Shown piece after piece: positions 1,451-60,121 of a stretch of DNA of 64,000 nucleotides (positions are counted from its first letter, which is position 1; each line of letters starts with the position of its first letter). The stretch lies in NCBI GenBank assembly GCA_024137785.1, contig JAHRHZ010000267.1, positions 14,087,454 to 14,151,453 on the forward strand, in the 5' to 3' direction. Position numbers and translations under genes: made by a program. This DNA comes from Ginglymostoma cirratum (Eukaryota). The notes below the pieces were generated by a model. The model saw only the letters and a list, made by a program, of their open reading frames with translations, made no database searches and was not told the origin of the DNA.

Positions 1451-1631
1451 TGGCCAGGCAGCATCAGAGGAGCAGGAAAGCTGACGTTACAGGACGGGAC
1501 CCTTCTACAGAAAGGTCCCAACCCAAAACATCAACTTTCCTGCTCCTCTGATGCTGCCTGGCCTGCTGTGTTCCTCCAGCTCCACACTGTGTTATCTCTG
1601 ACTCCAGCATCTGCACTTCTTACTATCTCTG
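1451..1631. mobile_element. Penelope-terminus hairpin element, family A
   Basis: Inverted arms 1452-1488 / 1527-1563 with a degenerate hammerhead-like centre. Flanking direct repeat agcttccgaaatgt (1437-1450) / agcttcttaaatgt (1632-1645). Confidence 0.8.
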
Positions 1632-2674
1632 AGCTTCTTAAATGTCCCCTCCTATGAGATATAGACATTCCAAATTGAGGGATGACTGCTTTGTTCCTCA
1701 GTTACACACTGTCCCTTTAAATTTTAGATCTGGTAGTTCTGAGTTCTGAAATTCCTGCCTGAGGCTCTGCCCCTCAGAGGTAGCACACTAATATTTTACA
1801 CAGACAAAACAAGATCAATTCAAGTACCTTGTGACTCGGTCTCTGGGCAGTCCAAGGATCTCACAGTAAGTCAAAGAAGACCCATGTAAGTTGCCAGATT
1901 TCACTGGGTGAGTTACTGAGGGCAGGGGAGACAAGTATGAGTTTCATTAAAATGGGAGACAGGATTAAGTTACATAATACTTAAGTTTCATGCAAGTGGG
2001 AAATTTAAGGCAAGAATCTGACATGCAAACACCTGCACAATTCCCAATATCCAGCTGCCACCTTGCCTACTTCAATGGGCTCATAAGAACATTTGAGCAG
2101 AAAGATGGAATTCAGCCACTTGAGCCTGCTCTAGATCATTTACCTCAAAAATTCCTATGCTATCCCCATTTCTCTTGATGTCATTTGTACATCTTACTTA
2201 ATGACTGCACTTCCACAGTCCTTTGGGGAACCTAACTCCAAAGATTCACCAACTTCACAGTGAAGAAGTTCCTTCTCATCTCAGTCCTTAATGGCTTACC
2301 TGTTATTCTGAGACAGGTTTCTAAGGCCCAGACAGGGGAAACATCCCTTTGAGAATTTTGCAAGTTACTTTGAAATCACCTCTCATGCTTCCAAGCTCCA
2401 GAGAATACAGACCCTGTCTCATCAAGTTTTCTTCACAGGACATTCCAGCATCCCAGGAATCAGCCCAATGAACATCCACCATACTCCCTCTGTGCCAAGT
2501 CTTTCTTTCCTTAGGCAAGGAGTCCAGAAATGCACACGATACTCCAGGTACAGTCTCATCAGTGTTCTATAGAGCTGAAGTGAGATTTCTTTGCTTCTGT
2601 ACTCACACCCTCTTGCAATAAAAGTTAACATACCATTTGTTTTCTGGACTGCTTGCTGCACTTGCATGGTGGTA

Positions 2675-2800
2675 GTTTTTTTTAAAAACCTGCTTTCCTA
2701 ATCAACCTGTTCAGAGATGATATTGCACAAGTCTAGAGCAGGTGGAACTTGAACCTAGGCCTCTCAGTCCAAGGGTAGGGACACTGCCACAAGAGCCACC
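2675..2800 (-). mobile_element. Short tRNA-derived SINE
   Basis: Minus strand starts GGCTCTTGTGGCAGTG... with B-box-like GGTTCAAGTTCC and ends in an A-rich tail; interrupts the CR1. Confidence 0.6.
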
Positions 2801-3173
2801 TTCACCCGCATGTTAGTACTCAATGACTTATGAACAATGATACCTGGGTCACTTTGGACATCAATTCTTTCTCATCTCTCACTATTCAAGAAATACTCTG
2901 CTCATTCATTTCTTCTACCAAAGTGGACAACCTCATACTTGGGTTCACGTTATATATTATCTGCAACATTCTTGACCACTCACTCAGCCTGTCTAAGTCT
3001 CCTTAAAGCCTCTTTGTGTCCTCCTTACAAACTCACAATCCCACCCAGTTGTGTGTCATCTGCAAACTTGTGTACATCATTTTTGCTGCCCATATGCAAG
3101 CAATTGACAAAGGTAGTGAACACTTGACATCTAAACACAGATACCCGTTGTCACAGCCTACCAACCTGAGAAC

Positions 3174-4378
3174 AGAGTCATTGAGTTATACAGCATGGAA
3201 ACAGAGCCTTCAGTCCAACCTGTCCATGCTAACCAGATATCCTAAACAGATCTACTCCCATTTTCCAGCGTTTGGCTCATATCATTCTAAACCCTTCCTA
3301 TTCATAAAATCCAGTTGCCTTTTAAATGCTGTAATTGTACCAGCATCCACTACTTCCTCTGGTAGTTCATTCCATAAGGTCCTTTTTAAATCTTTCCCCT
3401 CTTGCCTTAAACCTATGCTTCCTAGATTTAGACTCCCTTACCCTGGGAAAAAGACTTTGGCTATTCACCCTAACCATGCCCCTCATGATTTTATAAACCT
3501 GTATAAGGTCACCTCTTCAGCCTCCGACACTCTAGGGAAAATAGCCCCAGCCTATTCAGCCTCTCCCAATGGCTCAAACGGTCTAATCTCAACAACATCC
3601 TTGTAAATCTTTTCTGAGCCCTTTCAAGTTTCACAACATCTTTCCTATAGCACAATTGTATGCAGTGTTCTGAAAGTGGCCTAAACAATGTTCTCTGGAC
3701 CCAAAACGTTAACTCTGTTATTTCCTTCACAGATGCTGCCAGACCTTCTGAGCCTTTCCAGCAACTATGTTTTTGGTCCTGTACAGCTGCAATATGACAT
3801 CCCAACTCCTATACTCAATGCACTGGCCAATGAAGGCAGGCATACCAAATGCCTTCTTCACCATCCCGTCTACCTGTCTCTCCACTTTCCAAGAAACTAT
3901 GCACCTGCACCCCCAGGTTTCTTTACAAGATAACACTTCCCAGGGCCTTAACATTAACTTACATAAGTCCTGCCCCGATTTGCTTACCAAAATACAACAC
4001 CACACATTTATATTAATTGAACTTCATCTGCCATTCCTCAGCTTATTTGGCCCATCTGATTAAGGTCCCATTGTAATCCAAGATAACCTTCTTCACTGTC
4101 CACTACACCACCAATTTTAGTGTCATCTGCAAACTTACTAACCAAACCTCCTTATATTCACATTCAAATCATTTTGCAGTGGACCCAGCACCGATCCTTG
4201 AAACATATCAGTGGCCACAGGCCTCCAGTCCGAAAAACAACCCTTCACCCTACCCTGTCTCTTACCTTCAAGTCAATTTTGTATCCAATTGTCTATCTCC
4301 CCCTGGATTCCATGTGGTCTAACCTTGCTAAACAGTGTATCATGCAGAATCATGTCAAACACCTTGCTGAAATTCAAC
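3174..4378 (-). mobile_element. Younger CR1 LINE 3' portion (RT C-terminus and tail)
   Basis: Remnants FSKVFD..KVRPHGIQGEIDNWIQN, MVKKAFGMPAFIGQCIEYRSWDVILQLY, YRKDVVKLERAQKRFTRML. Confidence 0.9.
3695..3776 (+). mobile_element. Penelope-terminus fragment, family B, nested in CR1
   Basis: ggacccaaaacgttaactctg..cacagatgctgccagacc..ccagcaact matches copies at 30460, 41578 and 59916. Confidence 0.8.
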
Positions 4379-4389
4379 TGTTGCTGCTC

Positions 4390-5769: not shown

Positions 5770-7773
5770 TGATCCATTATTTCTACTCTCTGATTTCCAC
5801 CTATTAACCAATTTTCAATCCATGCTTGTATAATTACATCAATCCCATGCACTTACATTTGGTTTATTTAACCCCTTTGTGGGACTTCAACAAAAACCCT
5901 TTCAAAATCCAAATACACTGGTGCACAACTACTGGATCCCTCCTATCAACTCAGCTGATAACATCTTAAAAAAAACAACCAGGTTTGTCAACACACAGCT
6001 TCCCCTTCATAAATCCATGTTGTAACTGTCCAGTCTATTACTTTCTAAATATCTAGTAATCACATCCTTTTTAATAGATTCTAGTATTGACCCTTCTACT
6101 GGCAGGAGGCTGATGGATTTGAACTTCCTTGGTTCCTCACCCTCCTTTCCAAAATGGTGGTGTTACCTTAGCAATCTTCTGACCTGCACACTCCACGCAA
6201 TCTATTCCATTTCTCTTGCCGCAAATGCTGTTCCTAAATATTTCCAGCATATGCTATTTTAATTTCCAGTGATGTGTTTTGTGATTCAGTCAGATCTGGC
6301 AATGGATGGTTAAACCAATTGTCGGGTAAAAGATTTCTAATCTGTATTCCTTTTGACTCAAGACTGCAAAAGTAAGGGTTATACCTGGGCAATGACTAGG
6401 ATGATAGCATGTAATCACTTTAATAGGATAAAGAAGATGAAAGATGCTGAAGAAGGTGTGATTTATTGGAGCATGTTGTCATGATGAATCATAGGCCAAA
6501 GGCTAGATAGTGGGAAGTTGAAAGTGCATCGTGAAGAGACTTGAAGGAGAGTTTTTTTAAAACCAGAGAGATTCACAGAAAAAAAAAGGGATAGGGAGAG
6601 GGAAGTGGATATGGATAAAGAATAACATATGGAAAAGATTAGTGATTTCCTTACTAATGGGATTTATGCTGACTGGAGCAATTCAGCCTGGGGAAACAAG
6701 AGGCTGGTCATGAATATCAGTAGAAGTATTTATATGAGAGAGGGATTCAGACAAGAAATGGCAATGCAACCGTTTCTGTCAAAGAGAAGTTTATCTCATC
6801 ATGAAGCTTTCAAGGTGGATTCTTCTAAGCAATCAAAAAGGATACCTGCACATCAGTTGGCACTGAATAAACATATTAGTAAGCCACAAGCAACATATGG
6901 TCCACTTCGATCACTATCCAAAAGAAATACATATAAAACTGAGGAACATGGTTACTTTCACCTTCCTTGCAATGTCAGCAGACTTGTTCTCTACAAATTT
7001 GGCCACCCTTGTGTATGTCCACAGGTAGGAAGAATAACTCTTCTGAAAACAAAAAATCCTGGAGATCACAGTGGGTCGAGCAGTATTCATGGAGAGAAAG
7101 CAAGCTAACATTTTAAGTCTAGATAACTGTTCAAAAGGTTGGAAATATCATAGCATGTAACAGCACATAAAGAAGCTGTTAGGCAGCCAAGTGTTTCTGC
7201 GAGTTTACTCCCCAAGCCACTGATTTAAATCGCTTTCCTTTCCTCACTCCCCACACCACTTAACATTTTTAATTTTAAGCAACCATTTCCATTATTTACA
7301 AAATGATATATAACATCTATTTTAACTATGGTTGTGGTTCAGAAACCTGCATTCTAATTATCTTCTCAATAGAGATTATTTTTCTAATGTCTCCCTTGAT
7401 TCTTTTTGTGATTATTTTAAATTTGTGACCCCTTGTTAACATCTCACCACCATTAGGAACAATCTTATGGTGATTAGCTTGCCATAACTCACTAGTCACT
7501 ATTTTTACCATCAGCACAACTTCCCATTTAACATTGAACTGCAGACCAATAAAAGCGTTCACCTCTGCAGATTCTGCCCCATTAACCAAGTTTGATACTA
7601 ACTAAACTTCCTATATGCTGGTATTTTACACAAATAGAAGGAACAGATTCAGATTGAAATGTCTGGGTGTACCCTGGGCTTTCCACTTTAGCCACACTTG
7701 AGCTAGCACCAGGGCTCACTTTAACCACAATTTATACTTTTTGCAATTTTTCCCCAAAACAAGATTTGATCTT

Positions 7774-16264: not shown

Positions 16265-16359
16265 GTGAGTGCTGGCGGAGGCTAGCAGGTCAATTCCACT
16301 CTGTGGCGGGGTCAGACGGACCCACATCGTCTTCTGCCTGTAATAATACACGTGCCGGA

Positions 16360-16565
16360 GACACTTTAGCAGGTCTTGCAGCGTCTGTGGAGAGAGAAAC
16401 AAACTTGAGGTTTCAAGTCCGGTGCGACTCTCAGGTCCACATGGCATTGACCTGAAACTTCAACTCTTTGTTTTTCTCTCTCCACAAGTGCTGCCAGACT
16501 TGCCTTCTCCAGCACTTAACTGATTTCATTTTCAGATTTCCAGCATCCACAGAACTTTGTTTTTT
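16360..16565. mobile_element. Decayed Penelope-terminus hairpin just inside the intron
   Basis: agcaggtcttgcagcgtctgtggagagagaaac..gtttcaagtc is inversely repeated by gacctgaaac..tttctctctccacaagtgctgccagacttgc. Confidence 0.7.
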
Positions 16566-17221
16566 TTTCTTTGTGATCGCCTGATACCGAAAGAGAGCTT
16601 AGGGGTGGTGAGAAATGTAGTTTCATGAACAAAAAAGTTACTGACAGTTGGTGAGAAATACAATTTCTCAAAAAAAAGTATCAGTTGAACTACTTTACAA
16701 CAATCCAGTACATTTACAAAGTTATTTATGGTGTGATCAACTGGCGACTGAGTGCTGGTGAATCTTATTCAGAAAACCTACTGAATTCAGTGATCTGGAA
16801 TGCACTGTTTGAAAGGCAGTAGGATGCAGGATGTGAAGTAACATTCAAATCAAAAGGGGAAACGGCAGAGCAATGGGAAACAAATTGTTTTAATTGGATC
16901 GCTCCAAAAAGAGCCGGTACTGGCATGATGGGCTGAATGGCCTTCCATGTTGCATCCTTTCTAGGTTTTTAGATGAGTACATTGCTCATATTTTTACAAC
17001 TCATTTCACTTAATTTCACTGCAGTTCTGACTCAGAAAGCTTTGCAGCAGAGGATAATCAACTGTATTGTAATACAGTAGCTTACAACCACCTATTCATT
17101 TTTGTTGTGGGTTTGAAAGTGATTTTACATGCTCCATTTAATATTTCAAGAAGTCAATGAAACAATGGGCATGACGAATTGACTTTAATTATTGCTGAAA
17201 AAAGATACATATTGTCAAAGT

Positions 17222-17427
17222 TAGTCGGAACTGCTGATGCTAGAGAATCTGAGATAACAAGGTGTAGAGCTGGATGAACGTAGCAGGCCAAGCAGCATCA
17301 GAGGAGCAGGCAAGTTGATGTTTCGGGTCTGGACCCTTCTTCAGATTTCTTCAAAACTTCAGCCTTCCTGCTCCTCTGATGCTGCCTGGCCTGCTGTGTT
17401 CATCCAGCTCTACACCTTGTTATCTCA
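17222..17427. mobile_element. Penelope-terminus hairpin element, family A
   Basis: About 75-bp inverted arms 17250-17324 / 17353-17427. Minus-strand CTGAAGA-A-GGGTC-CA-GACCC-GAAAC. TSD catattgtcaaagt (17208-17221) / catattgtgaaagt (17426-17439). Confidence 0.85.
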
Positions 17428-20285: not shown

Positions 20286-20380
20286 TAAAGCAAAAGCCTG
20301 CTGATGCTGGAAATCTGAAATGAAAACAGAAAGTGTTGAAAATACTCACCAGGTCTGGCATCACTTTGGAGAGAAAAACA
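20286..20380 (-). mobile_element. Penelope-terminus fragment
   Basis: gatgctggaaatctgaaatgaaaacagaaagtgttgaaaatactcaccaggtctggcatc. Confidence 0.65.
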
Positions 20381-20384
20381 TACA

Positions 20385-22770: not shown

Positions 22771-22851
22771 CAGATACCGCCAGACCTGCTGAGCTTTTCC
22801 AACAACTTTGTTCTTGTTCCTGATTTACAGCATCTGCAGTTCTTTTGGTTT
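22771..22851 (+). mobile_element. Penelope-terminus fragment, family B
   Basis: ccagacctgctgagcttttcc..gatttacagcatctgcagttcttttggtttt, flanked by tcatttaa on both sides. Confidence 0.8.
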
Positions 22852-25399
22852 TCATTTAATTTGGGCACTGTCTGCAGGCATGTCCCTCATTGCCATTCAT
22901 TAAGTTAAGGTAAAGGCCACAGTCTTATAGGGATGGGTTGGAATCATTGGATCTATTGTGTGAAATTCCCCTGTATGGGCAGATTCCATAAAGACTGTAA
23001 AGGTTACAAAGAGATCCATGAAGTTCACTAATGCATGGAGTCACCTTGGAAAGAATGTGCATTCTTTACTATTTCCCCATTGTCATCTAAACTATTGTGT
23101 GATATACATAAAAGATTGGATCAGGCCTGACACTTTGCATAACAACGACATCTCATTTAATGTCATGCAGAGGGCAAGCTCTCATCAAAGCTGAGCCCCT
23201 GGACAAAAGCACTGAGTGTAGATATCTTTTTACCATTAAAAAGGGACAAATGAAGACCAACACTCAGGGGTTTTACATTACAACAGTGCAGAAGCCTATT
23301 CTCTGATGCCGGTTGCATTGCTACATTTAAACAGTATGGGACCTGAAGCAAAATCAATGAGAGGACTGAAACTGCTGTTGTATGAAAGTCTATCTATTCC
23401 ACAGTATTAAATGATGAGATCGAGTTCCAGACGTTTGTAGTCTGAGTCCTTGCCTTGTTTCTCACATGTCTATGGAGAGCAGTGTCTGATCCAAATATTA
23501 AAGGGAAGAGAGTCAAATGGTTTATGTTAGGTAGGAAATGAAATAATCGAAAACTCAACTTAAGACATTCATGATAGCTAAAGGGGTTACATTATCAGTT
23601 GCTGCTGAACGCTGAGAAAATGGTCAGAATAGAATCGACAAATGCAATGCATATCAATGCGAAATTGGTTGGCTAAGAATATAGAGACTTAATTGTGCTG
23701 CCTGTTTTCTGTCTCTTGTTATCACTAATTCATATAATAAGTCTCCCATTGGCTAAACTTTAAAAATAGCTATCTGCTTGAGCTTAATTGATTTAATTTC
23801 TGATGAGAGAAGTGTGTTTCACTTTGTGATACATTGCTATGCAAGAGTCTGTATGCTGAAAGGTGCTGCATTGCACTGAATCATTGAGATCGCAGTACTG
23901 TGCTGAAAGATGGAGATGGTTGAGACCTGGGTGCCAGAGGTGCCTAATAAAAAGGGATGAAGAGAGGCAGCCCAAGGCAACTGGAGTAAGGGAAGGTGTA
24001 GAACAAGAGTTGGAAGGTAAAGTTAAGGGGTCTACTGCATCATAAGGGCCAGTTACAGAACATTGTTGCTGGAAATAAGAGAGTAGCATTCTCCTCAGCA
24101 AACCAGCACCATATCAGCCAGCTCAGTTGCTGATATGAAAAATCATTGACATAGGTCATCTGCCCTCTCTGTCAAAGCATGGCCCAGCGGGAGGGGGAGA
24201 ATCGGAAACCTTATTTGAAAGAGAATTTACTCCTGTTGCTCCACATATAAATAGTCACCCAGATGTAGCAGATGTGTTCAATAGATCATTGTGCCAAATG
24301 CAATATATTACTGAGATAGTGCCACAGTTAGTAACATCTCCTAATTTATGGAACGTTTTAACTGCATCAACTGCTGATCATTTAATTTGACCTTTTCAGA
24401 CATCCTGAATACAACATGGGGGGAGAAAACAGCAGATCTGTCAAAATAAGAATAGATCAGGGCATTCGTGTTCCTGCTTTGCTTAAATATAGAAGCAGAA
24501 CATCAAAGTGGCAACAGACTTTTCAAACCTAAGCTGTCAGTTGACTCATATACATTAAGCAATCTAGGAAGAGAATGTACTTTCCCCCAGTGATTTTTGG
24601 AAAAAGAATGAGGGGATTCATCCTTATTGACTAATACTGTACGCTCATTGAAAGCTCTGGGTTCAATAACAAGGGAGGGGTTTGGTATGTCCTGCCAAAA
24701 GCTCTAGAAAGGCAGCTTTTTGTGGCCATGCAGCTCAACAGTTTCAGAAATTCTCATCTGAGGCAGCAATCAATAGAATGCATGCACAATTTAATGTTTC
24801 GAGCTGACCCATGTAATTTCACTCTGATGTAACTTACGCATGAGCTGTGGCTTAATTCTATCACTCAAGAGGCCAGGTTTATATTGTGTGGGTGGAGCTG
24901 ATTGTATCTTTTTTCCTATGCAAGTGATGAGCTGCTGTTGATGGGGCAACATGCTCCCAGTCCCTTTTGTGTTGTTCAGTATCAACCACTAGGCGGTGCA
25001 TGTGAGCTGCCTGGGGGATGACTTTTTCAGATTCTGTTCTGTCTCATCTACACTGAAGCAACTGGTCTCTTCTTGATACTGTATCTCAGTATTTAAGAAT
25101 GAGATGGTGGCAGGACATTCAATTTATGGGACTTGGTCCAACTTCTGCCTTTCATTAGATGCTGTTATGCAAAGCCTACTTCCTTGCCACATCTTTTAGT
25201 CATCTTCTTGAATATCTCTTCAAGTAGCTGGTGTCAAATTATGTCTGATATACCTCTTGTGAATTGACTTTAGAATTTAATTGTGTTAAAGGTACTATCT
25301 GAATCTAGGTTGGCACACAAGCCACTGACAGTGAGCAGATTTTCTGATATCTTATTGTTAAGTAGCAGGTAAGAGTGGTTTCTTCAATTTTAATTCAAG

Positions 25400-25625: not shown

Positions 25626-27228
25626 AAAAGCTGCAGTATATATGATGATGCGGTCTTTGAACTGACCTATAATGTGGTGAATATGTATTTGTCCACCAAG
25701 GTTCCTGTTTTAAAGAAAAAGCATCTGGTTATGGAATCCTCTTTTTCATAAATTGACTTGTGTTACCTACTTTGCAACAGTGACTACAGAATGCATCTCT
25801 AGGCTGTGCAGCATTTTGTTATGCTTTGAGGACATCAAGGCGCAATAGAAATGCTGTGTTTCTTTTAAGTTAAATAACAGGACGTCAAGTTGAGCGTTGG
25901 CACGGAGCTAACCTTGCACCATCCAAATGTGGGGCAGCTTTGCGTCAGGCCACCAGCACACGGATGCCCCATCCAACTCGCAAGGCTATTATGGCAGGCG
26001 ACAATAAAGGAGCAGATACAAGGGCCTCCGTACAGATGAGAACCTGAGGCTAATTTATATCTGGCAGATTCTGCCAGTCCCAAGAGGCCCACACATGCTG
26101 AATCATTGCAAAATGCCTTTAGGAAGAGCAATTGAGTCTGTTCTGCGATGATATTGAATTCTTTGGAACTGTAGTTATGTACAGGAAAGGTTAATGAATT
26201 GCCGTATTGTTGGTCACTAATTAAACAGAGTTTTTATAAAGGCAAGAAGTAATGTGATTTCAGTAATTGATGTGAAATCGATATGTTGGAGTGGGGGCCA
26301 GTTCAAAAGCCTTGATTTTACCAAATCCCTACATTGTAAAGTCTAGCATGATCACTGCAAATCTGGTGTATCTTTTATCAAAATTCAGAACACAATAAGA
26401 TGTGAAATGATAGCTGTAAAGAGCCCGCAATAACACAGAATCTTAAGATTCTGCTGTTATAAAAATATGCCTGAAACAGCAGTGAATTTGCATTATGTTT
26501 GCTATACTAATGTATTGGAGTGGCATTGATGATAAACACGCGTTCTAGCTTTTGCATATTAATATTATCAGACGAGGGATTTCAGGGAATGGGTGAGGTT
26601 GAATTGCATTGTTTAACAAACCCCTGAAAATTATCCCTGGCGGTCTCCTTTTGAGTGCGTATGTGTGAAGGTCCTTTACAACTTCTTTGTTGAATTTAGT
26701 CAAAATAACTGAGCTTGGTTGAAAACCCTCGACTTTGTCCCTGTGCAACAAAGCGAAGAGGTAGGTGAGGGTGAATCACAAATCACTGCTAAGTCTGCAG
26801 AAAGCCATCAGCTCCAGCATCTTTTGCAGCACAGAGATATGGAAACATATGAAGAGATGTATAAAGCCAGCAATTTTGGAAATAACTCAATTTCTTTGGA
26901 GAGGGAGTGTTAATGTTTCAGTTGGATCACCTTTCGTCAGAACTTGAAGAAGTTTGAGAGGTAATAAGTTTGAGGAAAGTAGAGAAATGCAGAAATGTGG
27001 ACAGCGAGAAAAAGAATAAACGAGAAGGTATATGATGAGGGTAAAAGGCAGAAATGATCAAGTAGCAAAAACGAGGGTGGGGGAAGGGCAGAGGAGATAC
27101 TAATGAAACACAGGCAGAAACAAAAGATGTGACTAAATGAGCTGTAAATGAGAAATGCCAAATCACTTATAACGGCTGTCTGAAAAACGTAGGCCACAGG
27201 CCTTAATCAGAAACTGTTGAGCATAATA

Positions 27229-27326
27229 CTGAGATAGCAAGGTGTAGAGCTGGATGAACACAGCAGGCCAAGCAGCATCAGAGGAGCAGGAAGGCTGACG
27301 TTTCGGGCCTAGACCCTTCTTCAGAA
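27229..27326 (-). mobile_element. Penelope-terminus element, family A, with an intact hammerhead core
   Basis: Near identical to the 17250-17345 arm. Minus strand reads CTGAAGA A GGGTCTAGGCCC GAAAC GTC. Confidence 0.85.
27295..27326 (-). ncRNA. Minimal type-I hammerhead ribozyme motif (putative)
   Basis: CUGAAGA + extra A + stem II GGGU/GCCC + GAAA + loopless palindromic ACGU stem III + GUC triplet. Stem I is weak in this copy; activity untested. Confidence 0.6.
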
Positions 27327-28129
27327 ATGGGCGTACTGATCCAGCCAGTGTTAAGTGCATATTCAAAAAATTAAGTGCCACTCATGAAGCTTATAGAGTC
27401 ATAGATGTTTACAGCATGGAAACAGGCCCTTTGGCCCAACTTGTCCATACCACCCATTTTTCACAATAATATTGAGCTTCATGAGAATATTAAGCTGAGG
27501 ACAGGGAGGTCAATGTGACAGCAAGACAGAGAATTAAAATGACAATTGACTGAAAGCTCAAGGTCACATTAATGGATTGAAGGTAGCAGTTCCACCAAAG
27601 TGGTCACCCAATTGCATTTGGCCTCTCCAATGTAAAGGGCGACCACACTATGAGCAGAGCATGTGGTACACTCACTTAGAAGAAGAATGATTGCTGTTTC
27701 ACCTGGGAGATGTATTTGGGAACCTTGACAGTGGGAAGGGAGGAGTAATGAGACAAGTATTCCATTCTTGTCTTGTATGGGAAGTTTTCCTCTGAAGAGG
27801 TGAGGGCAAGGAAGTGATTGAATTGCGAACCAGGGTATCATGAAGAGAGCTCATGTATTATGCCGTTTCCTGCTATTACCACCAACTGAAAAGTTTCATG
27901 ATCTTTGCTTCCAATTTGCAACCTTACTTACCCATGCCTTCATCTGAACTTTCTTTGTTTCTCCTTACAAATGTTTCCATTCTTGTGCATAATTTATGGG
28001 CCAATGTCTTATGTATGCCAACCAACTCCCTGTGTTTCCTTGATTACAGTCCCTAACTGTATTCTTCTTATCCAAACTGGAATCCATTCTCCTAAATTCT
28101 CCTTTCCCATTGTTTATGTCTGATTGTGT

Positions 28130-29105
28130 TACCTCATGAGTATGTTTTTCTCAGTCAAAACTTCTTCCATCAAGGTTGACAGGCAATTCATGTCGGTTCC
28201 ATTTACTTCACTTCTGCTGCCATTCCCTTCACCTCCTTCCCAGAACCGTAATAGTTCCTGTTGCCCTCACCTTACATCCCACCAATCTCCAGAACTGCCA
28301 GATCACCCATCACCATTCCCAGTAACAACATGGCACCACCAGATACCTGCTTCTCTTGCTTTTTATCATTTTGAAGGGGCCAGTCCTTCTGCAACACTCT
28401 GGTCTGCCTCCCTCCCATTCGGACCTTGCCATGCAAGTACGAGGGATGCATCACCTCCCCCTTAACCTTCTCCCTTCCTACCATTTAGAGCCCCAAACAT
28501 ATTTTCGAGGTGAAACAGTGATTTATTTCCTTAGTTCTCAACTTGGCATGTTCTGTCTGCTGCTTGTATGTATTCTCCTTCATATAAACATAAACATGAG
28601 CTTTCAGTTGCCTGTTTAATTCTCTGTCCCATTCCATCTTCATGTCCTGTTATTGATCTCCTACACTTTTAACAGCACATTGTCTTTTCTTTAGGCACTT
28701 TGCAGTCTTCCGGACTCAATATTACGTTCAACAATTCAGATCCTTTGCCTCTTATATCGTTGCATCTTTTCGAGACTTATCTTTTGTTTCCTTGTTTGTT
28801 CTATTGCCATTTCCTTTTGCACTGTGCTATTCTCCTTTGTAATTTAATGGCTTCTCCCACACTATCAAAGGCCTAACTGTTTTATTCTTTCACCGCCCAA
28901 ACCAACCACGTTTGCCTGTCCCACCACTTTGTCTCTGTACTTGCTTAAAACCGGCTGCATTTCTAACTTTCTTTCCAAGTCTGACAAAATGGCATCAATC
29001 TGCAAAGCTAGCTCTGTTTCTGTTTCCACAGACATTGCTCAACCTGCTGAGTATTTGCAATGCATTTCATTTTTATTTCAGGTTCCTAGTATTGATGCTA
29101 TCTTG
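28130..29105 (+). mobile_element. Decayed Penelope-like element: EN region and 3' terminus
   Basis: ccatttagagccccaaacatattttcgaggtgaaacag.. is the inverted homologue of 27690-27750; ends in a cacagac..cctgctgagtattt..tttcagg terminus. Confidence 0.65.
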
Positions 29106-30458
29106 CTGTTGCACTGGAACAAAATACTCCCTTTATCAAGTACCTGTCAGTTGCTTTTTACACGATGGGTGTGCAGGCAACAATTGACATGCAGTTCCTT
29201 CAATGTGGGCCGCACGCCTCGTATAAAATGTCCAAGGGAAGTATGTGCATACCTGAGACCAGTATTTACACAGTGGTGCCCAGCGTAGATATTGGGTCTG
29301 ATGCAAAAGACTTATTTGCAGAAGGCAACACAACAACCCGAAGGGAGTATAATACACAACACACTGGTCTGCAAAAGAAAAGTCAGTTTAAAATTGTCAC
29401 ACGTTTCACAGGAACAAGTTCTTTGGCAACTTCAAGCAGCAGTATGGAATAAGACCACTTGTATGAGCCAGTAAGGATGTAAAGGCAGGTTCCATCATGA
29501 CAGGAGTCAAAACCATAGATTTTAGGAGGGGATCTTCAGTCTTTATCATTGAGACATAATTTAGATTGAACCCATCCATCATATTGCTGCACAATAACTA
29601 CAAGAGAATAGGTCTCAAATCTTGTTCTGAACAAAGGTAATAAAGACTGTTTTAAAACCCACTACTCTTCAAGCCATTAAATGTGAAGCATTTTCACATT
29701 TACACTGTGCAGTTGTCTCTCTTTTGTGAAGATCGACAAAGAAAAGACCATTTCTGAGTGGATGCCTAGAATACATTTTAGCCAATGATGATGCCAACTT
29801 GTGATGCACATAATACAGTAAGTGTTGACGTTAAACTTTCTACTTAATTAGATAATAGCAGGATGTTGTGAAGCAGGCAGTGCTACGTTACACATTGAGT
29901 AAAAAGAAATGTGTGGTAGAATTGTAGATCTGTTGCACGTCTCAATTCACCTGTCTGCATGAATGATAATTATAGGATCTCATCTGAAAGTACTGCTTGC
30001 TTCTAATATGTTTATCTGAAAAACTTTTTCTGTTGTGTACTGCATGTATCCAGAACAAACCTATTAGCCTGACAACACTGACTCACTTAGATTAACCTTT
30101 TTATGATGATACTGCCACAATTATCAGGGCAGCTGCATTAACATTTGATTTTTTTTCAAAAGTAGAACCGTGTGATGTATTTAATAGCTAGTCTTCAAAA
30201 TGGTTTGACCTGATTTTCTGGTTAGCTGCATAAAGTGAAATAACGTGGAGATAATCTGCCTTTTCAAAGACATGGGACCAGTTGGTTTACATTTCAACCC
30301 AAATACAGTATTCATTGATGGATGTAGAAGTTATCTAATTTAGGTCATCAAGGTGACCACGTAAGTGAGGATTACACTGGCTCAACAATTGCTTCTTGAG
30401 CTCTTAAATAGATGGAATCTTTTGCATGTTAAAGTGTGACAAGCCTTGGAAACTGTTT

Positions 30459-30674
30459 AAAAACCGAAAGAACTGCAGATGCTGTAAATCAGGAACAAAA
30501 ACAGAAGTTGCTGGAAAAGCTCAGCAGGTCTGGCAGCATCTGTGAAGAAAATAGTCAGAGTTAACGTTTCAGATCTGAGGAAGGGTCACCGGACCCAAAA
30601 CGTTAACTCCGATTTTTTTCTTCACAGATGCTGCCAGACCTGCTGAGCTTTTCTAGCAACTTCCTGTTTTTGCT
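30459..30674. mobile_element. Penelope-terminus hairpin element, family B
   Basis: Inverted arms about 30495-30569 / 30598-30672. Centre CTGAGGA-A-GGGTC-ACCG-GACCC-aAAACGTT (30575-30604). Confidence 0.85.
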
Positions 30675-38061: not shown

Positions 38062-38104
38062 GAAAAAAAAGTTCAAAGAAAGCAAGAAAAGAAGCTGCAC
38101 AGGA

Positions 38105-41577: not shown

Positions 41578-41699
41578 GGGTCACCGGACCTGAAACGTTA
41601 TCTCTGTTTTTTCCTTCACAGATGCTGCCAGACCTGCTGAGCTTCTCCAGCAACTTTGTTTTTGTTGCTGATTTACAGCATCCACAGTTCTTTTGGTTT
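41578..41699 (+). mobile_element. Penelope-terminus element, family B, single arm
   Basis: Starts at stem II gggtcaccggacctgaaacgtt. TSD ttaaaaaggttgaa (41564-41577) / ttaaaaagattgaa (41700-41713). Confidence 0.85.
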
Positions 41700-43709
41700 T
41701 TAAAAAGATTGAATCTTATGGCTGAGTCTCACTAGTTCCCTGGTAGCAAGCTAGGAGGCAGGAGGACTTGTAAAATGGTGGCAGAAGATGTTGCAACAGG
41801 AGATTAATGTCTTCCTGTCACAAGATGTTGTCAATGGCAGGAAAGGGCTGGCATAGCTCATTCATTGAAAGAAGGCAATAAACCACAAAATGGGCTAATC
41901 AAAGACAACCTCCTGCCCTCTCCATCATTTTACCAGTGTCAAGATAGACCCCTGCTTCACGGAGAGACCATCAGATAAATTGTGCCCAGTGTTTTTCTAG
42001 GGTGAGTGTGTGCCCTTCCTTTCTGTCTGTGCCACGGCCTGTAGGGAAGGCCACCAGTGGCCATGACTGCCCTTTATGATCCAACACTGCTGCTAGAGGC
42101 TAAACCCCTCTGGTCATCTTGGTCTGCCCCCATGGCCACAGCAATGTCAAAAAGATCTTATTTGGCCTTCAAAGGTGCCTCAACTTGGCTGTCTCTTCCA
42201 GCAGTCCCCACAGTGACCACCTCTGCCTGTGGCACTGCCGAGGCCACCAGATTTCCAGCCCTCCGATTGCACCAGCAGATCTAAAAGGACAGCATCATGC
42301 CCAAACCTCTTACTTGCTTGCCATTGGTAAAATTCTCAGGCTCAGGGCCTGTGTTCGGTCCTGGATGTGCTAGCATCCCATCTTTGGAAAAAACGCAAGG
42401 CCTTCTAAAATCTGAATTCTCAATTTCTGACCATTTAGCTGGTTTGTTCTATTTGCTTACCAAAATACTGCCCTTTCTTCTGTATTGTTGATTCTTGGTG
42501 AAATGCCATCTGCAAACCTTCTTAAGCGGTGATAGTTGGCATATGAGCCAAGACAGGGACATGAAGATGCCAGAACTGAGTTCGTTCTTGTCCTCACTGA
42601 TGTCTGCATATGAACTTTTTCCAGTGGGAAGCACTGGATTAACAGTCAAGAGTGGGAGCTATTGTCGATGCTGCATGCCTTCTCCAAATGTGCGTTGGGA
42701 AGACAGAACCAATGCTTTCAGTTCTCCACCATAAAACATTTCATCTCCACAGCCATTTGTTTAGGCTGAAGCAGACCCTATAAAAGTTTGATACCTTGTG
42801 TGATCCTGAGCGAAACCTTAAACCAACAACCTATTCACTGTCAACACTGTGTATTTCCTACTCTGTGCAGAGCCCACTACTGCTATCAGTTCAATCCCTG
42901 CTTCTCCTGAAACCCTCTCCCACACATTTTAAGTCACCCCAAACTCAATGGCATGGATTTCAAAATTGCGATATATTGTCAAATGAGTAATGATAAATCT
43001 TCAGGCAATATTGGAAATAAAGTGCGATAGACATTAGACATGGTTACTGATTCAGTATCACTCAATTTACTCTATTAAACAAATGCAAACTTTACTCCAG
43101 GTTCTCCAATGTTCTCTGCACTGTTTACCATCATTAATGAACAGCTATTGGTCCTATGTTCATCTGCCTGCACCCTAGTCTATACCAAGCTGTACTTGCG
43201 AATTTGAGGTATTTGTCTTGAAATTCTTTCTGATCTCGCCCCACAATACCGTGCAACCTTCTTGCACTTCCAGCAACTGTTCATTATTTAATTTGGCCTT
43301 TTGTGGATCTCAACCCTCTACCCTTCAGCTCAGCTGTATTTCCCTTGCCCAAATCATTTTTTTCTGCCTGACCTTTACAGATCTTATAAGAACACATCTT
43401 TTTTGCAAAACATTCAGTCACCTTTTCTACCTTCACCATTGTCAGGTAAGAAAGAAAAAAAAATCAGTCAGGCTTTCCACTTTGGTGTTAATCAGCAACC
43501 TCTACTGGAAAATAGTCACATGAAAATGTTGGTTCATGCCACCATACTCGGATATCCTGTTTATTACTCATTATTTTGACTCAGAGCTGAAGCTGCAGGA
43601 GGGAACAGGCTAATAGACTTGAAATTTGCTTGACTCATTTTCTGAGGGAAGGGGCAGTATCAAGGGAATACATGCTCAGCCATGTCCAAACTTTTACAGC
43701 TGTAAAGGA

Positions 43710-46316: not shown

Positions 46317-46455
46317 AGTTCTGAAGACGAGTCACAGCAGACTTGAAACACTAACCCTGTTTCTGTCTTCACTGACGCTGTCAGACCTGCTACAGTTCAC
46401 CAGCAATTTCTATTTTTATTTCAGATTGTCAACATTCACAGTATTTAGGTTTTAT
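46317..46455 (+). mobile_element. Penelope-terminus element with hammerhead-like motif
   Basis: agttCTGAAGA-C-GAGTC-acagca-GACTT-GAAAC (46321-46349), then gacgctgtcagacctgct..tttcagatt. Confidence 0.7.
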
Positions 46456-54079: not shown

Positions 54080-55065
54080 GATTCAGGACAATATGGATTT
54101 GTCGAGGTAAGGTTGTGCAATGTTTGGAAAGGTTAAAAGGAAGGTCCATGAGGATCCACATTCATAGTAGTCTACACAGATTTCAGGACAGTTTATGACA
54201 AGATGCTACATGGTAGGCTTATCAGACAATTAAAAGATCATGGCATCTCAAAGCAAGTTGCCAAGTTTCATCTAAAATTGGCTCAGTGTCAGAAAACAAA
54301 ACACTGTGTTTGCTGATATTTTTGTGACTCAGTGTCTTTGTAGTTTTGCAGAGCTCCATTTGGATCCCTTGCTGCTCTTGATATAAAAAGAATGATTTAG
54401 ACTTACGCAGTAAGTATGATTTGCAGGAGATGTAAATGTTGTCTATGTGATTGATTGTGATGAAAAATGCTGCAGACTGAAGGATGATACCAAATGCACT
54501 GATCAGATGGACAGAAAAGCGGCAAATGAACTTCGGTCTGGTGAAATGCTACGTAATATATGTCGGGAAGACAAATAAGGCAAAGGAATACACAGCAAAT
54601 GGTAGGACTCTGACAAATACAGAGAAACTGAGGAGCCTTTGAATGTGTATCTACAGATCCCTCCAAGTAACAGAAGTGGTAGATTAGATCAAAAAGGCAT
54701 TCAGAATACTTTCCTTTGTTGTGTAGAGATAGAGTTAAAGAGCAGGAAGGTTAACCTGGACCCATGTAAAACACCAATTATATCACATCTCGAGAGTACT
54801 ACTGCATACTGTTCTGATCACAGTGACAAGACAGATGTGATCACACTGGCGAGCATACAAGGATATTTAAAAATACTTGACTATAAAGAATGATTGGATT
54901 GTGGTTGTTTTCTGTAGTACAGGGGAGACTGAGGAATGATTGAATCATTGGGACTAAAGTTATCTGAACATTAAACTGAACTGGGACTAAAGAGAGGCCA
55001 AAATAGAGTGGTTAGGAAAGACATATATCCTTTAGCAGAGAGGTCAATAACAAGAGGCTTGGATT
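54080..55065 (+). mobile_element. Old decayed CR1 RT
   Basis: gatttcaggacagtttatgacaagatgctacatggtaggc (DF.KAFDKVPHGRL-like) and collinear downstream RT remnants. Confidence 0.65.
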
Positions 55066-55069
55066 TTCT

Positions 55070-55750
55070 TTTAAATCACTTGTGGGATTTGGTTGTCACT
55101 GCCAAGGTCAGCATGTTCCGCCCACCCTTGTTTGCCCTTGCAAAGATGATAGTGAGCTGCCTTCCAGAACCAAGACAGTCCATGTACTGTTAATGCACCT
55201 ACAGTGCTATTAGGAGGGAGTTCCAGTGAGACCGAAGAAATGGTGCTAAAGTTCCTTTGGATGCTGTGTGGCTTGGAGGGCACCTTGCAGCTGTGGTGCT
55301 CCCTTGCACCTGCTGCTCTTGTTCTAGATAACAGAGGGTTGGGTTTGGAAGATGCTGTTGTGGGAACTTCAGTGAGTTGCTGCAGTGCATTTTGCAGTTG
55401 TTACACCGTATTACCGCTGTGTGGGTGGCGGAGAAGATGAAAGTTTGCGGTGGATGATGATGTGCCAGTCAAGTGCCCACTATTAGCTCTGGATGTTGTT
55501 GAACTTCTGGAGTATTGTTGTCAACCGGCAGGTAGAGAGTATTCATCGCACTTGAGATTTGTGCCTTGTAGGTCATTTCTAGGGAGTGAAGAGCTCAGTT
55601 ACTTGCCACAGAATTTTCAGCCTTTGATCTGTTCTGTCTGATACAGTGTTTACATGGCTGGCCCAGTTCAGTTTCTGGTCAATGGTAAACCCCAATTTCA
55701 GCAATGGTAATGCCATTGAATGTCATGGAGAAATGTTTAGATTCTCTCTT
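55070..55750 (-). mobile_element. LINE 3' end (CR1/L2-group)
   Basis: Minus remnants WNSL, HGLSWFWKAAHYHL; tail shared with the SINEs at 25400 and 51680. Confidence 0.65.
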
Positions 55751-55769
55751 GCAGCCATTTTCGTGTCCC

Positions 55770-56022
55770 ATTACCACTCCCTTAATTCTGTACCACGAAA
55801 CCTTCTGTCATAGAAACTCCTGCTCTCCAGCCAATCACATACCTATCCTTTTCCCTTCTTCCCACAGTCCCACCTTCTCTTGTTCAAAACCCGAGACATG
55901 CCAAATTTTCCTCAATTCTGATGAAAGCTCAGACTGAAATAGAGGTGATGCTCAGACCTGCTGAGTATTATCAGCATTTTCTGTTTTATTTCAGGTTTCC
56001 ACCATCTGCAGTATGTTGCTTT
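55770..56022 (+). mobile_element. Penelope 3' terminus, decayed
   Basis: ttCTGATGAaagc..cagacctgctgagtattatcagcattttctgttttatttcagg. Confidence 0.6.
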
Positions 56023-56024
56023 CG

Positions 56025-56975: not shown

Positions 56976-57112
56976 TAAAGCGAAATATACTGCAAAGCTG
57001 GAAATCTGAAATAAGTACAGAAAATACTGAAAATGCCAAACAGGTCTGGCAACATCGGGGGAGAAAGAATCAGAGTTCATGTCTCATTTCAATGACCTTT
57101 CATCAGAACCAA
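56976..57112 (-). mobile_element. Penelope-terminus element, decayed
   Basis: gctggaaatctgaaataagtacagaaaatactg..caggtctggcaacatc..gacctttcatcagaacc. Confidence 0.65.
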
Positions 57113-58859
57113 GAAAAGTTAAATTTGATTTAGATCATACAGCCTTTCTTCCGCTTATGTCTCGGTCAATCCATATTTCAGTCGTTTCTCTGCAAAGGTC
57201 ATCCCTACACTTCTTTTATTCTGAATGAACCTGGCTTCATGCAATATTAATTCATGCCTGCTTACTTCAGATGTTTAACTAACATTGATTTGCTGGTTTT
57301 GTCTTGAAGTCTATGTCCCTCATCTTCACATTTTATTTATTGCATTGCTTCATCCTGTACAACCCTTGTTGGTTAGAGAAATGCTAAATTCTGGTTAAGA
57401 TCTTGCCCATCTATTCTGTTTTATTTGATTTCCTTCATTTAATCCAGGCACATGAAGCACTGCTTTTGTATCTGGATAATAATTCTTGTGGTACCTAACA
57501 CTGTATCAATGTTTGGTTGCCACAACAGGCATCATGACCAATAAGTCTCCTTGGACACATTCATTCACGTCATTCCTCCTGAAGTGGAGGTGACCCAGTT
57601 GATCACCTCAAACTGAAAGCATTGAAAGAGCTCCTGGGAAGCTGGGCATCTTTCGATAGGTGGTCACGTTACATTGATGAAGAAGCAAAGGGGATCCATT
57701 TTCAGTGAGTTACTGAGCACAAAAGTCCTACACAGAGGAAAAAGAAACTTGGAATTTGCTCATGTGTAAATGAGCATTTCAGCTTTTCCATTGCAGTTGC
57801 AGTCTAGTGCAGCCTTCAGTCACACTGTCAATGGTGCTTGATACGTTGCTGCAGCAGTACAGGTCTCTTCCCTTTTCAAGCACTAAATTTGTTGGCCGTA
57901 GCACATCACTTGAGCACATTCACATTTAAACCTCCCAATCAGTAATTTTGTTATTGTCAAAAAACTGGTGGTAAGCAAATATTTTACCATAACTCCAATG
58001 TTCCTAAGCACTATCAAACAATTATCATAAAGATAAGGTCTCATACTGGCAGCAATTTCTAGATTCGTACATATTCTTCTAAAAGCCAGTCTTACCCGCA
58101 TAAATTTAGAAACACCTTCAAGATGAAAATATGTCTTCTGAAATAATTAATATCTTCTTACCATCTTCCTTGATAGATCCACTGAGTAGCACCTTGCAGA
58201 AAGTTTTATAATGATATATCTTTCAAATGTGCCTCCTCAAACTCTGGCCATCAGCCAACTTTGTCAAACGATTTACAGAAAAGAAGTGACTTGCATCATT
58301 TCATTATGATGAGAACCATTTTATTAAACATTAGGCTCACTAATGTGATTGCTGCAGTGCTCCTGGCACGAGGGCTGTATGTTATTGGCCATGGAGGCCT
58401 GAGGCGGGCTTATGCCCACATGCTCAATTCTCTCCAATTGCAGGCATAAAGCACTTAACACTATGAGCCTTCACACTGAATGTGCGCAAGGCTCATTAAA
58501 CCATGAGCTCTGTTTAAATTAGCAGTCATTAGCATAATACAGCTGGAGCTTCTGAACAGCACTCCAAAAGCTCAGTATCTGTTCACAATGGATGTAATGT
58601 GGACAGTTCTAAAATTTAAATTGTTTTCCTGGTTGTAAAAGGGCCAAATATCATTTATGTCCACTGGTGGCCAGTTTTTGAAAGTGTTTTTTTTTCCTCC
58701 AGATGTATTTGAGAAGTAAAAGTGATGAATTGGGAAGGAAGCAGCCTTTCAGTTCTAGCTGTCTCCTAACATGGTGGTCAACTGATCATATTGGCCTTGG
58801 ATTGAGTGCTTCACAGATTGGCCAGAGTGATACTGGTGTTAATAGGGCTCAGTTATAAG

Positions 58860-59380
58860 GAAAGGTTGCAGGGGGTGGGTGGAGATGTAGAGTTAAGGTC
58901 ACAATCGGATCAGCCATAATCATGTTGAAAGGTGGAGCAGGCTAGAGGGGCCAAATGGCCTACTTAGTTCTAGTTCTTATGTCTGTGGACAAGGCTTGCG
59001 TTCTTTTGTGTATAGTAGATTAATGGGTGATACACTTGAAGTGTTTAAAATCACTAACACATTCGATAGGGTAGCTAGAAATATTTTCATGAGGTGGAGA
59101 AGCCCAGTTCCAGGGGGCAGAACATTAACATTACAGCTAGGCTGTCGAGTGGTAATGTCAGGGAGCATTTGTCTTCATGCAAAAATTTTGTGGCAATTTG
59201 GATTTCTTTCCCCCAAAACACTGCCAAGGATAAGTCAATTGAAAAATTCTAAAATGAGATTCATCAATTATTGCCAGGTAAGATCATCAAGATACATGAA
59301 ACCATGAATTTTAAATGAAGTTAAAATGAGTCAGATGAGCAAGGGGCTGAATAACTTGCTCATATTCCAATGTTACTGTG
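58860..59380 (+). mobile_element. Two adjacent decayed CR1 3' ends
   Basis: ggtggagcaggctagaggggccaaatggcctact tail; RLMGDTLEVFKITNTFDRV remnant. Confidence 0.6.
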
Positions 59381-59915
59381 TACTGGAAAAATAGCAATAA
59401 TATTTAAATTAACTCAACTTGTTTCAGTGGGAACAGAGAATTCTTTTGGACATAGATATGTATCTTGATGATAAGTGATGCATCTGGAATAGTGGTTCCA
59501 ACAGTGCTACGTCGGGACTGTTTTACATCCCCATTTTGAGTTTGTGTGAAAAGTTGCAGGAACCCCAGCCTGTCGATAAAGTCATTTGGGATCAAGAGGC
59601 ATGCTCTATTGATTTGCTGAACCTGCCCATTGTAGCATATAGTGACAATGAAAAGATCATTTTGTGTTGAAACGCTCCCTGTCCTGCAGATCATAGGAGT
59701 TGCAAAAGAAAGGTTCATTATGTACCACTTTGAAGCACTGTAGTTTTAGATAAGCAAAAACTGCCACCGTTTTGAACATGGCAAGACACAATGATGGCAC
59801 TGAAATGAGTGAGCTATGTGTCTGTGAATTCATTTTCAACACTGCTTTCATGAGGAATGGTGGTGATGGAAAATTCTGCCTGCTTTTTCTTTGCATAATG
59901 CCGTGGAATCCCTAA

Positions 59916-60121
59916 ATAAAAACCAAAAGAACTGCAGATGCTGTAAATCAGGAACAAAAACAAAGTTGCTGAAAAAGCTCAGCAGGTCTGACAGCATCTG
60001 TGAAGGAGAAAACAGAGTTAACGTTTTGGGTCCGGTGACCCTTCCCCCGAAACGTTAACTCTGTTTTCTCCTTCACAGATGCTGTCAGACCTGCTGAGCT
60101 TTTTCAGCAACTTTGTTTTAG
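59916..60121. mobile_element. Penelope-terminus hairpin element, family B, perfect arms
   Basis: 70-bp perfect inverted repeat 59957-60026 / 60050-60119. TSD tgccgtggaatccctaa (59899-59915) / tgccatggaatccctaa (60122-60138). Confidence 0.92.

Follow-up and report, generated by a model that had tools for sequence, protein, structure and literature searches.

Short repeats scattered through the window, the whole 64-kb stretch of Ginglymostoma cirratum DNA analysed here, are very likely copies of a Penelope terminus (pLTR), and their 5' ends cluster at the hammerhead of that terminus. Profile searches at E ≤ 5e-7 detected 21 arms at 16 loci, which over 64 kb amounts to a copy roughly every 4 kb; the reversed window gave no match in these searches at E ≤ 5. 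With +1 defined as the first C of the CTGANGA core, 5' ends fall at −5 to +23 in 14 of the 21 arms and in 11 of the 12 young arms, a small sample in which the arm end coordinates were read by hand. The breakpoints are thus tied to the hammerhead region, as the initial annotation had proposed, and the common stop point in the hammerhead may mark where the element RNA begins. The literature already describes inverted and tailed pLTRs as well as minimal hammerheads that are dispersed or paired on opposite strands; the clustering of 5' ends at the hammerhead appears to be a new detail on a known kind of element.

Copies, hairpins and insertion marks

An arm is composed of a minimal type-I hammerhead and approximately 100 nt, with or without a tail of 30–40 nt. 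All 13 loci named in the initial annotation contain the repeat, and three further loci (7046, 26900, and 28979) were found. Weak profile matches at 6210 (E 0.02) and at 19190, 24427, 34670, 48402, 54585, 63265, and 63363 (E above 0.2) are left out of all counts. The families A and B described earlier and the older copies are mutually homologous, with an A versus B identity of 56–72%. Single arms occupy 11 of the 16 loci, and the other five are head-to-head hairpins, the same five that had been listed before.

Two hairpins belong to family A. The one at 1451..1631 joins a minus-strand arm (1451–1513, 5' end approximately −3), cut at its 3' end at approximately +58, to a tailed plus-strand arm (approximately 1511–1631, 5' end approximately +6). 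The other, at 17222..17427, joins a tailed minus-strand arm (17222–17346, 5' end −1) to a tail-less plus-strand arm (17352–17427) whose 5' end lies at +21 or, if the arm has an internal deletion, at −3. In family B, the hairpin at 30459..30672 combines a tailed minus-strand arm (30459–30575, 5' end +18 to +23) with a tail-less plus-strand arm (30571–30672, 5' end −1 to −5), and that at 59917..60119 combines a tailed minus-strand arm (59917–60045, +5) with a tail-less plus-strand arm (60046–60119, +20). The arms of the latter match at 73 of 74 shared columns, and both carry variants missing from other B copies. The fifth hairpin is old and spans 16340..16568, its true start lying near 16340 and not at 16360 as first given; its tail-less minus-strand arm (16340–16432) and tailed plus-strand arm (16433–16568) differ in stem-II variants. 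Folding stability exceeded that of all 60 random windows for each of four hairpins, and that of the 16340 hairpin was equalled or exceeded by one window in 60.

The shared geometry noted earlier holds for the full set: exactly one arm is tailed in all five hairpins, its tail-less partner is shorter (by approximately 35 nt in four and by approximately 70 nt at 1451), and all ten arms start at −5 to +23. The junctions differ in all five, with 0–6 nt of shared bases, and the hairpin itself is therefore not the mobile unit. Very probably, it forms at integration. In L1 twin priming, cDNA synthesis likewise starts from each of the two target strands and leaves a 5' segment in inverted orientation with microhomology at the joint, and two different parts of one RNA are copied. 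Both hairpin arms here, in contrast, copy the same stretch, which was therefore read twice or from two RNAs.

Among the single arms of the young families, a complete minimal hammerhead core (27324–27297) is found in the tail-less family A arm at 27229..27328 (minus strand), which starts at A(−4). The family B single arms, all on the plus strand, are the tail-less arm at 3695..3783 (5' end approximately +15) and the tailed arms at 22771..22852 (start approximately +50) and 41578..41701 (5' end +6 to +9, with a 3-nt microhomology between the 5' end and the target). The old single arms comprise a tail-less arm with a damaged core at 7046..7140 (minus strand, profile E 8.8e-12) and tailed arms at 20286..20381 (minus strand), which starts at approximately +35, 3' of the cleavage site, at 46317..46455 (plus strand), whose 5' end coincides exactly with the opening base of helix I (−4), and at 56976..57125 (minus strand), which extends to approximately −18.

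Three old copies, at 26900, 28979, and 55900, apparently have long upstream parts of approximately 250–280 nt, with moderate support. The minus-strand copy at 26895..27224 has a pyrimidine-rich upstream part of approximately 280 nt and a hammerhead core (first C at 26940), its 3' part being decayed or lost. The plus-strand copy at 28694..29110 has an upstream part, a core at 28981, and a tail, and that at 55668..56022 (plus strand) has an upstream part, a core at 55918, an internal deletion, and a tail. The locus at 55900 had been taken for a tiny element and is probably not one, as the upstream sequence, moderately supported, adds approximately 250 nt. Over 300 nt, upstream homology exceeded all 60 local shuffles in two of the three pairs (z 4.1 and 4.6), with z of only −0.4 to 2.7 for sub-segments.

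Against a null of swapped boundaries (n = 240), direct flanking repeats of 8–20 bp are significant at five of the 16 loci, including three of the five hairpins. They measure 20 bp with two mismatches at 59917 (59896–59915/60119–60138, p = 0.004) and 14 bp with one mismatch at both 17222 (17208–17221/17426–17439) and 41578 (41564–41577/41700–41713; p = 0.004 each). Those at 1451 (1437–1450/1632–1645; 14 bp, two mismatches) and 22771 (22763–22770/22852–22859; 8 bp) have p = 0.037, uncorrected. By the same null, duplications are not significant at the other 11 loci, which include the hairpins at 16340 and 30459. An empty site is available for the arm at 3695, which sits in a LINE fragment: the LINE paralogue at 38400–38590 (minus strand) does not have the insert of approximately 85 nt. 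The duplications at five loci and the empty paralogous site at one more bear out the earlier view of these repeats as discrete insertions.

Arm ends relative to the hammerhead

The clustering of 5' ends departs from memoryless truncation when one arm per locus is used (p 0.001–0.004), and this argues against the alternative offered in the initial annotation, extreme 5' truncation, insofar as truncation is a random process. Five arms have their 5' ends at −1 to −5, and none of the young arms extends beyond −5; of the 14 clustered ends, nine are found at +5 to +21, away from the proposed start. No arm among the 21 starts at the cleavage site; therefore, ribozyme cutting is unlikely to create the 5' end. 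The 3' ends are bimodal, with 12 of the 21 at +128–133 and seven at +92–99. The 5' clustering is independent of which 3' start served: tailed and tail-less arms are alike in 5' position (p = 0.73) and unlike in length (p = 0.01). The 12 significant tail matches include no tail-only fragment.

An A is present at −4 in seven of the nine arms that reach the core, and the fit of the core-reaching arms to YYANWYY is 7/7 in three and 6/7 in four, with a perfect match at −6..+1 in the 55668..56022 copy. All three long copies have an A-rich box approximately 30 nt upstream (approximately 32 nt 5' of the A at −4 in the 28694..29110 copy). These Inr- and TATA-like motifs have little information content, the copies share ancestry, and the stretch can also be read as a branch point, pyrimidine tract, and AG acceptor.

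The hammerhead of the terminus is of the minimal type I and is decayed or partial in most arms; only the arm at 27229 (one of 21) keeps every core base and the palindromic helix-III pair. Helix III comprises two intermolecular pairs with no loop, which departs from canonical type I. Helix II/I pairs covary (0.117 versus 0.079 in shuffled alignments, reached by 0 of 500), a comparison that ignores the kinship of the copies. An Rfam search at E ≤ 10 gave 19 matches, none to a hammerhead family; those to miRNA families are generic hairpins scoring under their gathering thresholds. A possible 3' stem-loop pairs the tail with the region near +50 (76% paired versus 24–52% when slid), with covariation not above that of shuffles (492 of 500 reach it). 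The alignment fold contains only five pairs, and single-arm folds are mostly equal to shuffles, with z below −2 in one of seven.

Penelope assignment and coding sequence

The helix II/I covariation, the optional tail, and the inverted partner uphold the original identification of a Penelope terminus with a minimal hammerhead. EN+ Penelope-like elements (PLEs) of the Penelope/Poseidon and Neptune clades have pLTRs with a head-to-head inverted truncated copy, a 30–40 bp tail at one end, and a terminal hammerhead (PMC8557442), and 8–10 bp duplications and palindromic junctions are described for such pLTRs (PMC3846280). The repeats here share the one-end tail, inverted partner, terminal hammerhead, palindromic junctions, and duplications, the latter of variable length (8–20 bp), whereas both partners are just 60–140 nt in length and no ORF is inserted. 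The window contains no partially tandem pLTRs surrounding an ORF. Dispersed minimal hammerheads in metazoans are described as mostly single and thought to be truncated PLEs, with opposite-strand pairs noted 100–700 bp apart (Cervera and de la Pena 2014, PMC4209133). As in the accessible text of that study, helix III has no loop, the 15.2–16.2 pair is palindromic, helix I is short, and an extra base lies between A9 and helix II; unlike there, helix II has 5 bp and opposite-strand cores abut or overlap. The same text contains no map of insertion ends relative to the ribozyme.

No PLE reverse transcriptase (RT) or GIY-YIG domain was matched by Pfam in 75 frames lying 5' of six copies that are longer or older, or in 134 long frames of the window, where the sole RT match is a LINE fragment at 5309. 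A protein profile search gave four matches, of which P0001 and P0002 truly overlap the repeat; P0003 and P0004 are repeat proteins matched by chance. As protein text, P0001 reads as another family B hairpin with both arms reaching approximately −4. P0002 (eukprot:g46612.t1), the single source of an RT link, is a gene model of uncertain exon structure that joins family B head-to-head to a stretch with an RT-core-compatible reverse strand. That reverse strand is open and fits 21 of 23 RT-motif residues, a count for motifs picked after the match was seen; none of 1000 shuffles reaches 20. No endonuclease was seen in P0002 (protein only), and a search for its relatives found itself alone, one of three candidates. 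An ORF continuing the family B frame was found in neither of the two candidates scored among longer proteins, which is weak evidence, and the reading frame is not the same between families. The only match of a 23-nt motif in genome contigs was to an actinobacterial contig (L001, 67% G+C) and is attributed to chance because it does not extend.

Proposed pathway and alternatives

We propose that the arms are probably short cDNAs from EN+ Penelope-like retrotransposons that end at the RNA 5' end in helix I; that the arm boundary is itself the RNA 5' end is an evenly balanced question. A Penelope RT-endonuclease supplied from another genomic locus would make the insertions. To judge from the duplications, both strands of an A/T-rich target would be nicked 8–20 nt apart. 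Internal priming on the RNA, at approximately +132 (with tail) or approximately +95 (without tail), would account for the two observed 3' classes, and priming on the 5'-proximal pLTR copy would give a cDNA of only 70–140 nt. Such a cDNA may run off at the RNA 5' end (−4) or be joined slightly short; the observed positional clustering suggests that transcription starts where helix I begins (−4). One cDNA by itself would leave a lone arm. Short cDNAs made from the two nicks could join head-to-head as a hairpin, and a short cDNA combined with a long one started from the 3' pLTR could give the classical inverted pLTR, of which there is one database example. The hammerhead would be carried through uncleaved.

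This pathway has a biochemical counterpart in PAc, a Poseidon element of Anolis carolinensis, for which double-strand nicking and extension in vitro, uncleaved RNA as the substrate, and internal priming are reported (Frangieh et al. 2024, PMC11167929). Two adjacent RT start sites bracket its tail, approximately 110 nt or more 3' of stem II, and the two 3' end classes here match them. In the accessible text of that report, no reads end at the cleavage site and a helix I start site is not reported. The PAc ORF begins at stem II, whereas no ORF continuation was found here. A more elaborate version is doubtful: an initiator would sit where helix I begins, and a dimeric RT-endonuclease holding two RNAs, possibly paired via the palindromic helix III, would prime both target strands from the 5'-proximal start sites and yield cDNAs resembling 'strong-stop' products. 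The tiny copies could then be the direct source of inverted pLTRs, promoter-bearing solo pLTRs could supply a SINE-like class, and the 16340 hairpin, with its differing stem-II variants, might be a two-template event.

It is rather unlikely that the arms are instead 3'-pLTR-primed cDNAs truncated prematurely at the 5' end, with clustering produced by RT pausing or template jumping in a folded, possibly dimeric hammerhead whose stem II also offers microhomology for head-to-head joining. The nine arms that end at +5 to +21, in the core and stem II, the bases shared at hairpin junctions, and the apparent reach of three old copies approximately 270 nt further upstream fit this account, and severe 5' truncation is described as usual in PLEs, as is the occurrence of inverted truncated copies (PMC8557442, PMC4209133). 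However, RT moving 3' to 5' would meet the fold at approximately +35, where only one arm starts, the five arms stopping at −1 to −5 are past the fold, a limit that young arms never cross, and the memoryless model is rejected. A self-sustaining, non-autonomous SINE-like class, in which solo pLTRs that keep a promoter give short helix-I RNAs copied in trans, is improbable. The A-rich box and Inr-like text kept in long old copies, the variants common to both 59917 arms, the 16 loci with no ORF nearby, and the sufficiency of rotifer pLTR sequences for trans-mobilisation (PMC3846280) speak for it. Against this, neither young family has a long copy in the window, short copies do not have the upstream box and could give rise to no further copies except from an internal promoter, and the product would look identical here to that of 5'-pLTR priming on full mRNA.

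The 'retrozyme-like' system of the initial annotation, which would involve hammerhead-processed linear or circular monomers and rolling reverse transcription, is very unlikely. Non-LTR retrozymes (PMC7229834; bioRxiv 10.64898/2026.07.22.740005) are likewise small, non-coding, and pLTR-related with a type-I hammerhead; vertebrate retrozymes are described as coming from pLTRs and leaving monomers (bioRxiv 10.64898/2026.07.22.740005), and a circle would allow reading through the cleavage site. Theirs are head-to-tail tandems with circular RNA, whereas these are single or head-to-head and carry the minimal PLE hammerhead, which is kept apart from retrozyme hammerheads in PMC7229834. The five tandem-repeat rows of the window include no head-to-tail hammerhead array, no tail sequence lies upstream of any core, contrary to a circle junction, and cleavage-site starts are absent from the 21 arms. 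Five palindromic elements of 180–230 bp, three with flanking repeats, might recall a MITE or TIR DNA transposon with the hairpin as its mobile unit; the unequal ends (tail on one side), five differing junctions, predominance of single-arm loci (11 of 16), and unfixed duplication length of 8–20 bp make this hardly tenable.

Both the origin of PLE inverted or pseudo-LTR ends and the in vivo role of the hammerhead are stated to be open (PMC7761336, PMC11167929, in the parts available). A host with approximately one copy per 4 kb holds a large genomic record of RT starts and stops. Should 5' ends across the genome show a step at −4, the RNA start would be mapped from DNA alone, swarms of dispersed minimal hammerheads would be run-off cDNAs, and cleaved RNA would rarely be integrated.

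Hairpins also occur in or near a protocadherin gene, that at 16340 approximately 75 nt into the intron 3' of the protocadherin exon. Inverted Penelope copies give siRNA in Drosophila (PMC3681739), and by analogy the hairpins by the protocadherin gene could be a source of double-stranded RNA.

Copies and hammerhead architecture

Profile searches of the window, seeded on the listed copies, identified 21 arms (single copies of the short Penelope terminus, or pLTR) at 16 loci. These include all 13 loci listed in the initial annotation and three more; the reversed window gave zero matches. The older copies show homology to both young families, A and B, which are 56–72% identical to each other. With the first C of CTGANGA taken as +1, an arm comprises, in order, a 4-nt strand of helix I, CTGANGA, a single additional base, helix II of 5 bp, GAAA, a loopless palindromic CG pair, the cleavage triplet, whose last base is +30, the second strand of helix I, and then approximately 100 nt. 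Judged from sequence, this architecture is that of the minimal hammerhead described in the accessible text on Penelope-like elements (PMC4209133). Helices II and I covary among the arms: both sides are changed in nine cells versus 2.7 in shuffled data, and the score was reached in none of 500 shuffles, values that kinship can inflate. The whole core is intact in only one of the 21 arms, and an Rfam scan of the window did not report a hammerhead.

Weak profile matches (E 0.02–1.8) at 6210–6266 (+), 54585–54637 (−), and 19190–19259 (+), kept outside the counts, may be very old additional copies. The young family-A arm at 27229–27328 lies directly next to the upstream segment of the old long copy at 26895–27224 (−) and shares its orientation; it may have been inserted within or next to an older element. 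Among the family-A arms (1451, 1511, 17222, 17352, and 27229), the two tailed arms share a variant immediately 3′ of the cleavage site and the three tail-less arms share a different one, a pattern with a chance of about 1 in 10. From about +30 to +52, family B has branch-point-like text, a pyrimidine tract, and CAG immediately 5′ of an ATG. This text is not conserved in family A, and protein searches found no protein continuing from the ATG.

Insertion sites, hairpins, and ends of the arms

The initial annotation described discrete insertions with flanking repeats and breakpoints near the hammerhead, and both descriptions hold. Direct repeats of 8–20 bp flank 5 of the 16 loci above a null of 240 swapped boundaries (three with p = 0.004, two with p = 0.037). 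The copy at 3695 sits within a LINE fragment; a paralogue of that fragment, at 38400–38590, is without the ~85-nt insert. No flanking repeat of this copy scored above the null. In hand-read alignments, 5′ ends lie at −5 to +23 in 14 of the 21 arms and in 11 of 12 young arms; two others lie downstream (approximately +35 and +50) and five farther upstream. Tested against a memoryless truncation model fitted to the arm lengths, this clustering has p values of 0.001–0.004 with one arm per locus.

The 3′ ends are bimodal, at +128 to +133 in 12 arms and +92 to +99 in seven, with two shorter, and the flanks are A/T-rich at most tailed ends. The optional 3′ piece of 30–40 nt, or tail, is carried by exactly one arm in each of the five hairpins (1451, 16340, 17222, 30459, and 59917). 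All 12 significant matches to a tail profile fall within known arms, and very short copies are thus not being missed. Tailed and tail-less arms differ in length (p = 0.01) and share the 5′ stop (medians +7 and +5, p = 0.73), indicating that the stop is fixed by position and not by length.

The five hairpin junctions are all unlike, with 0–6 shared bases, so each hairpin was very likely formed at insertion. Self-priming on an antisense template, an earlier explanation of palindromic head-to-head junctions in the accessible text of PMC3846280, might also have produced them. The arms of the 59917 hairpin match in 73 of 74 columns and have in common variants that the remaining B copies lack, suggesting a single source; later arm-to-arm conversion could alternatively underlie the likeness. 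In the hairpin at 16340–16568, the left arm scores 107 with the 46317 copy versus 84 with its own partner, and the arms have different compensatory stem-II variants; given the much decayed sequence and the lack of a duplication, this no more than hints at two templates. The junction at 17346–17352 has six bases in agreement with the family-A start, and the right arm at 17352 may therefore begin at −3, without stem II through a jump or a later deletion.

Origin of the short copies

In five arms the 5′ end lies at −1 to −5, and none of the young arms reaches farther upstream. An A occupies −4 in seven of the nine arms reaching that position, in a YYANWYY context. About 30 nt upstream, an A-rich box is present in each of the three long old copies, at 26895–27224 (−), 28694–29110 (+), and 55668–56022 (+). 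Together, these features suggest a core promoter whose start would be the first base of helix I. Alternatively, this sequence could be a splice acceptor, since the Drosophila virilis intron ends at helix I (PMC4209133, in part); that intron is located 46 nt downstream of the start site (PMC2377424, in part).

The three old copies appear, with moderate support, to reach about 270 nt farther upstream; a longer parent therefore probably existed. Pfam searches of translated frames found no Penelope-like ORF in the window. A family-B reading-frame profile matched four proteins. One, P0002 (eukprot:g46612.t1), has family-B text as its C-terminal end. Its first 79 residues, taken on the opposite strand in one register, are compatible with an open frame that fits six short reverse transcriptase (RT) motifs in order; 21 of 23 residues match, versus at most 19 in 1000 shuffles. 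The motifs were picked after the match was seen, and P0002 may derive from a spliced gene model. One of the six motifs was absent from the 10 papers listed for it. P0002 would have the arrangement expected of a long copy truncated in the RT plus a short inverted arm. P0001, another matching protein, runs through an antisense arm to about −4 and then a sense arm from about −4; it reads as a putative sixth hairpin, known from translation only.

The best fit, which we consider probable, is double-strand target priming: both target strands would be primed, reverse transcription would begin at two internal start sites, and the short cDNAs would end at an RNA 5′ end located at helix I. In an anole element, according to the accessible text of PMC11167929, the tail sits between two internal RT start sites; there, the two target strands are each nicked and extended by the enzyme, whose substrate is uncleaved RNA. 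RT stalling within the hammerhead fold, which we regard as unlikely, accounts for nine ends (+5 to +21) and leaves the five at −1 to −5 unexplained. Less likely again is a solo-pLTR class mobilised in trans, whose products would be the same as those of double-strand priming. The initial annotation had proposed a retrozyme-like system. As retrozymes are defined in the accessible parts of PMC7229834 and bioRxiv 10.64898/2026.07.22.740005, this is improbable: tandem units and circle junctions are missing from the window, and none of the 21 arms starts at the cleavage site. A MITE, which fails on both element ends and junctions, is the least credible.

Dispersed minimal hammerheads, opposite-strand pairs, inverted pLTRs, tails, and duplications are already described; the short repeats are real and form a set of new families within a familiar type of element. 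Neither 5′ ends mapped to helix I nor a run-off explanation of short copies was found in the literature searched; subscription papers, Repbase reports, or supplements may contain one. PMC6765202, PMC7761336, PMC5753468, PMC7561263, PMC8969392, and PMC3681739 supplied background alone. The position-anchored 5′ end is the part worth following.

Genomic setting

The window is vertebrate DNA of approximately 40% G+C. A large, G+C-rich first coding exon at 13796–16265 (+) encodes five Pfam cadherin domains of a protocadherin, presumably protocadherin-19 judging from the cytoplasmic part, with a splice donor near 16265; the old 16340 hairpin begins about 75 nt into the following intron. LINE fragments in both orientations (3170–4150, 5309–5623, 38100–39040, and 47050–47810) have RT and endonuclease Pfam matches, including an RT match at 5309, and are probably CR1-type. 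SINEs of one tRNA-derived family, whose 3′ end is LINE-like, lie at ~4538–4790, 7775–8076, 21047–21293, and 39180–39380 and probably resemble the shark HE1 SINE, and the LINE fragments and the SINE at ~7775–8076 presumably resemble shark repeats. The window also contains a tandem pair of a 51-bp unit at 63432–63537, with copies 96% alike. In whale-shark introns, CR1-like and Penelope-like elements are reported to be abundant in the accessible text of 10.1101/443036.
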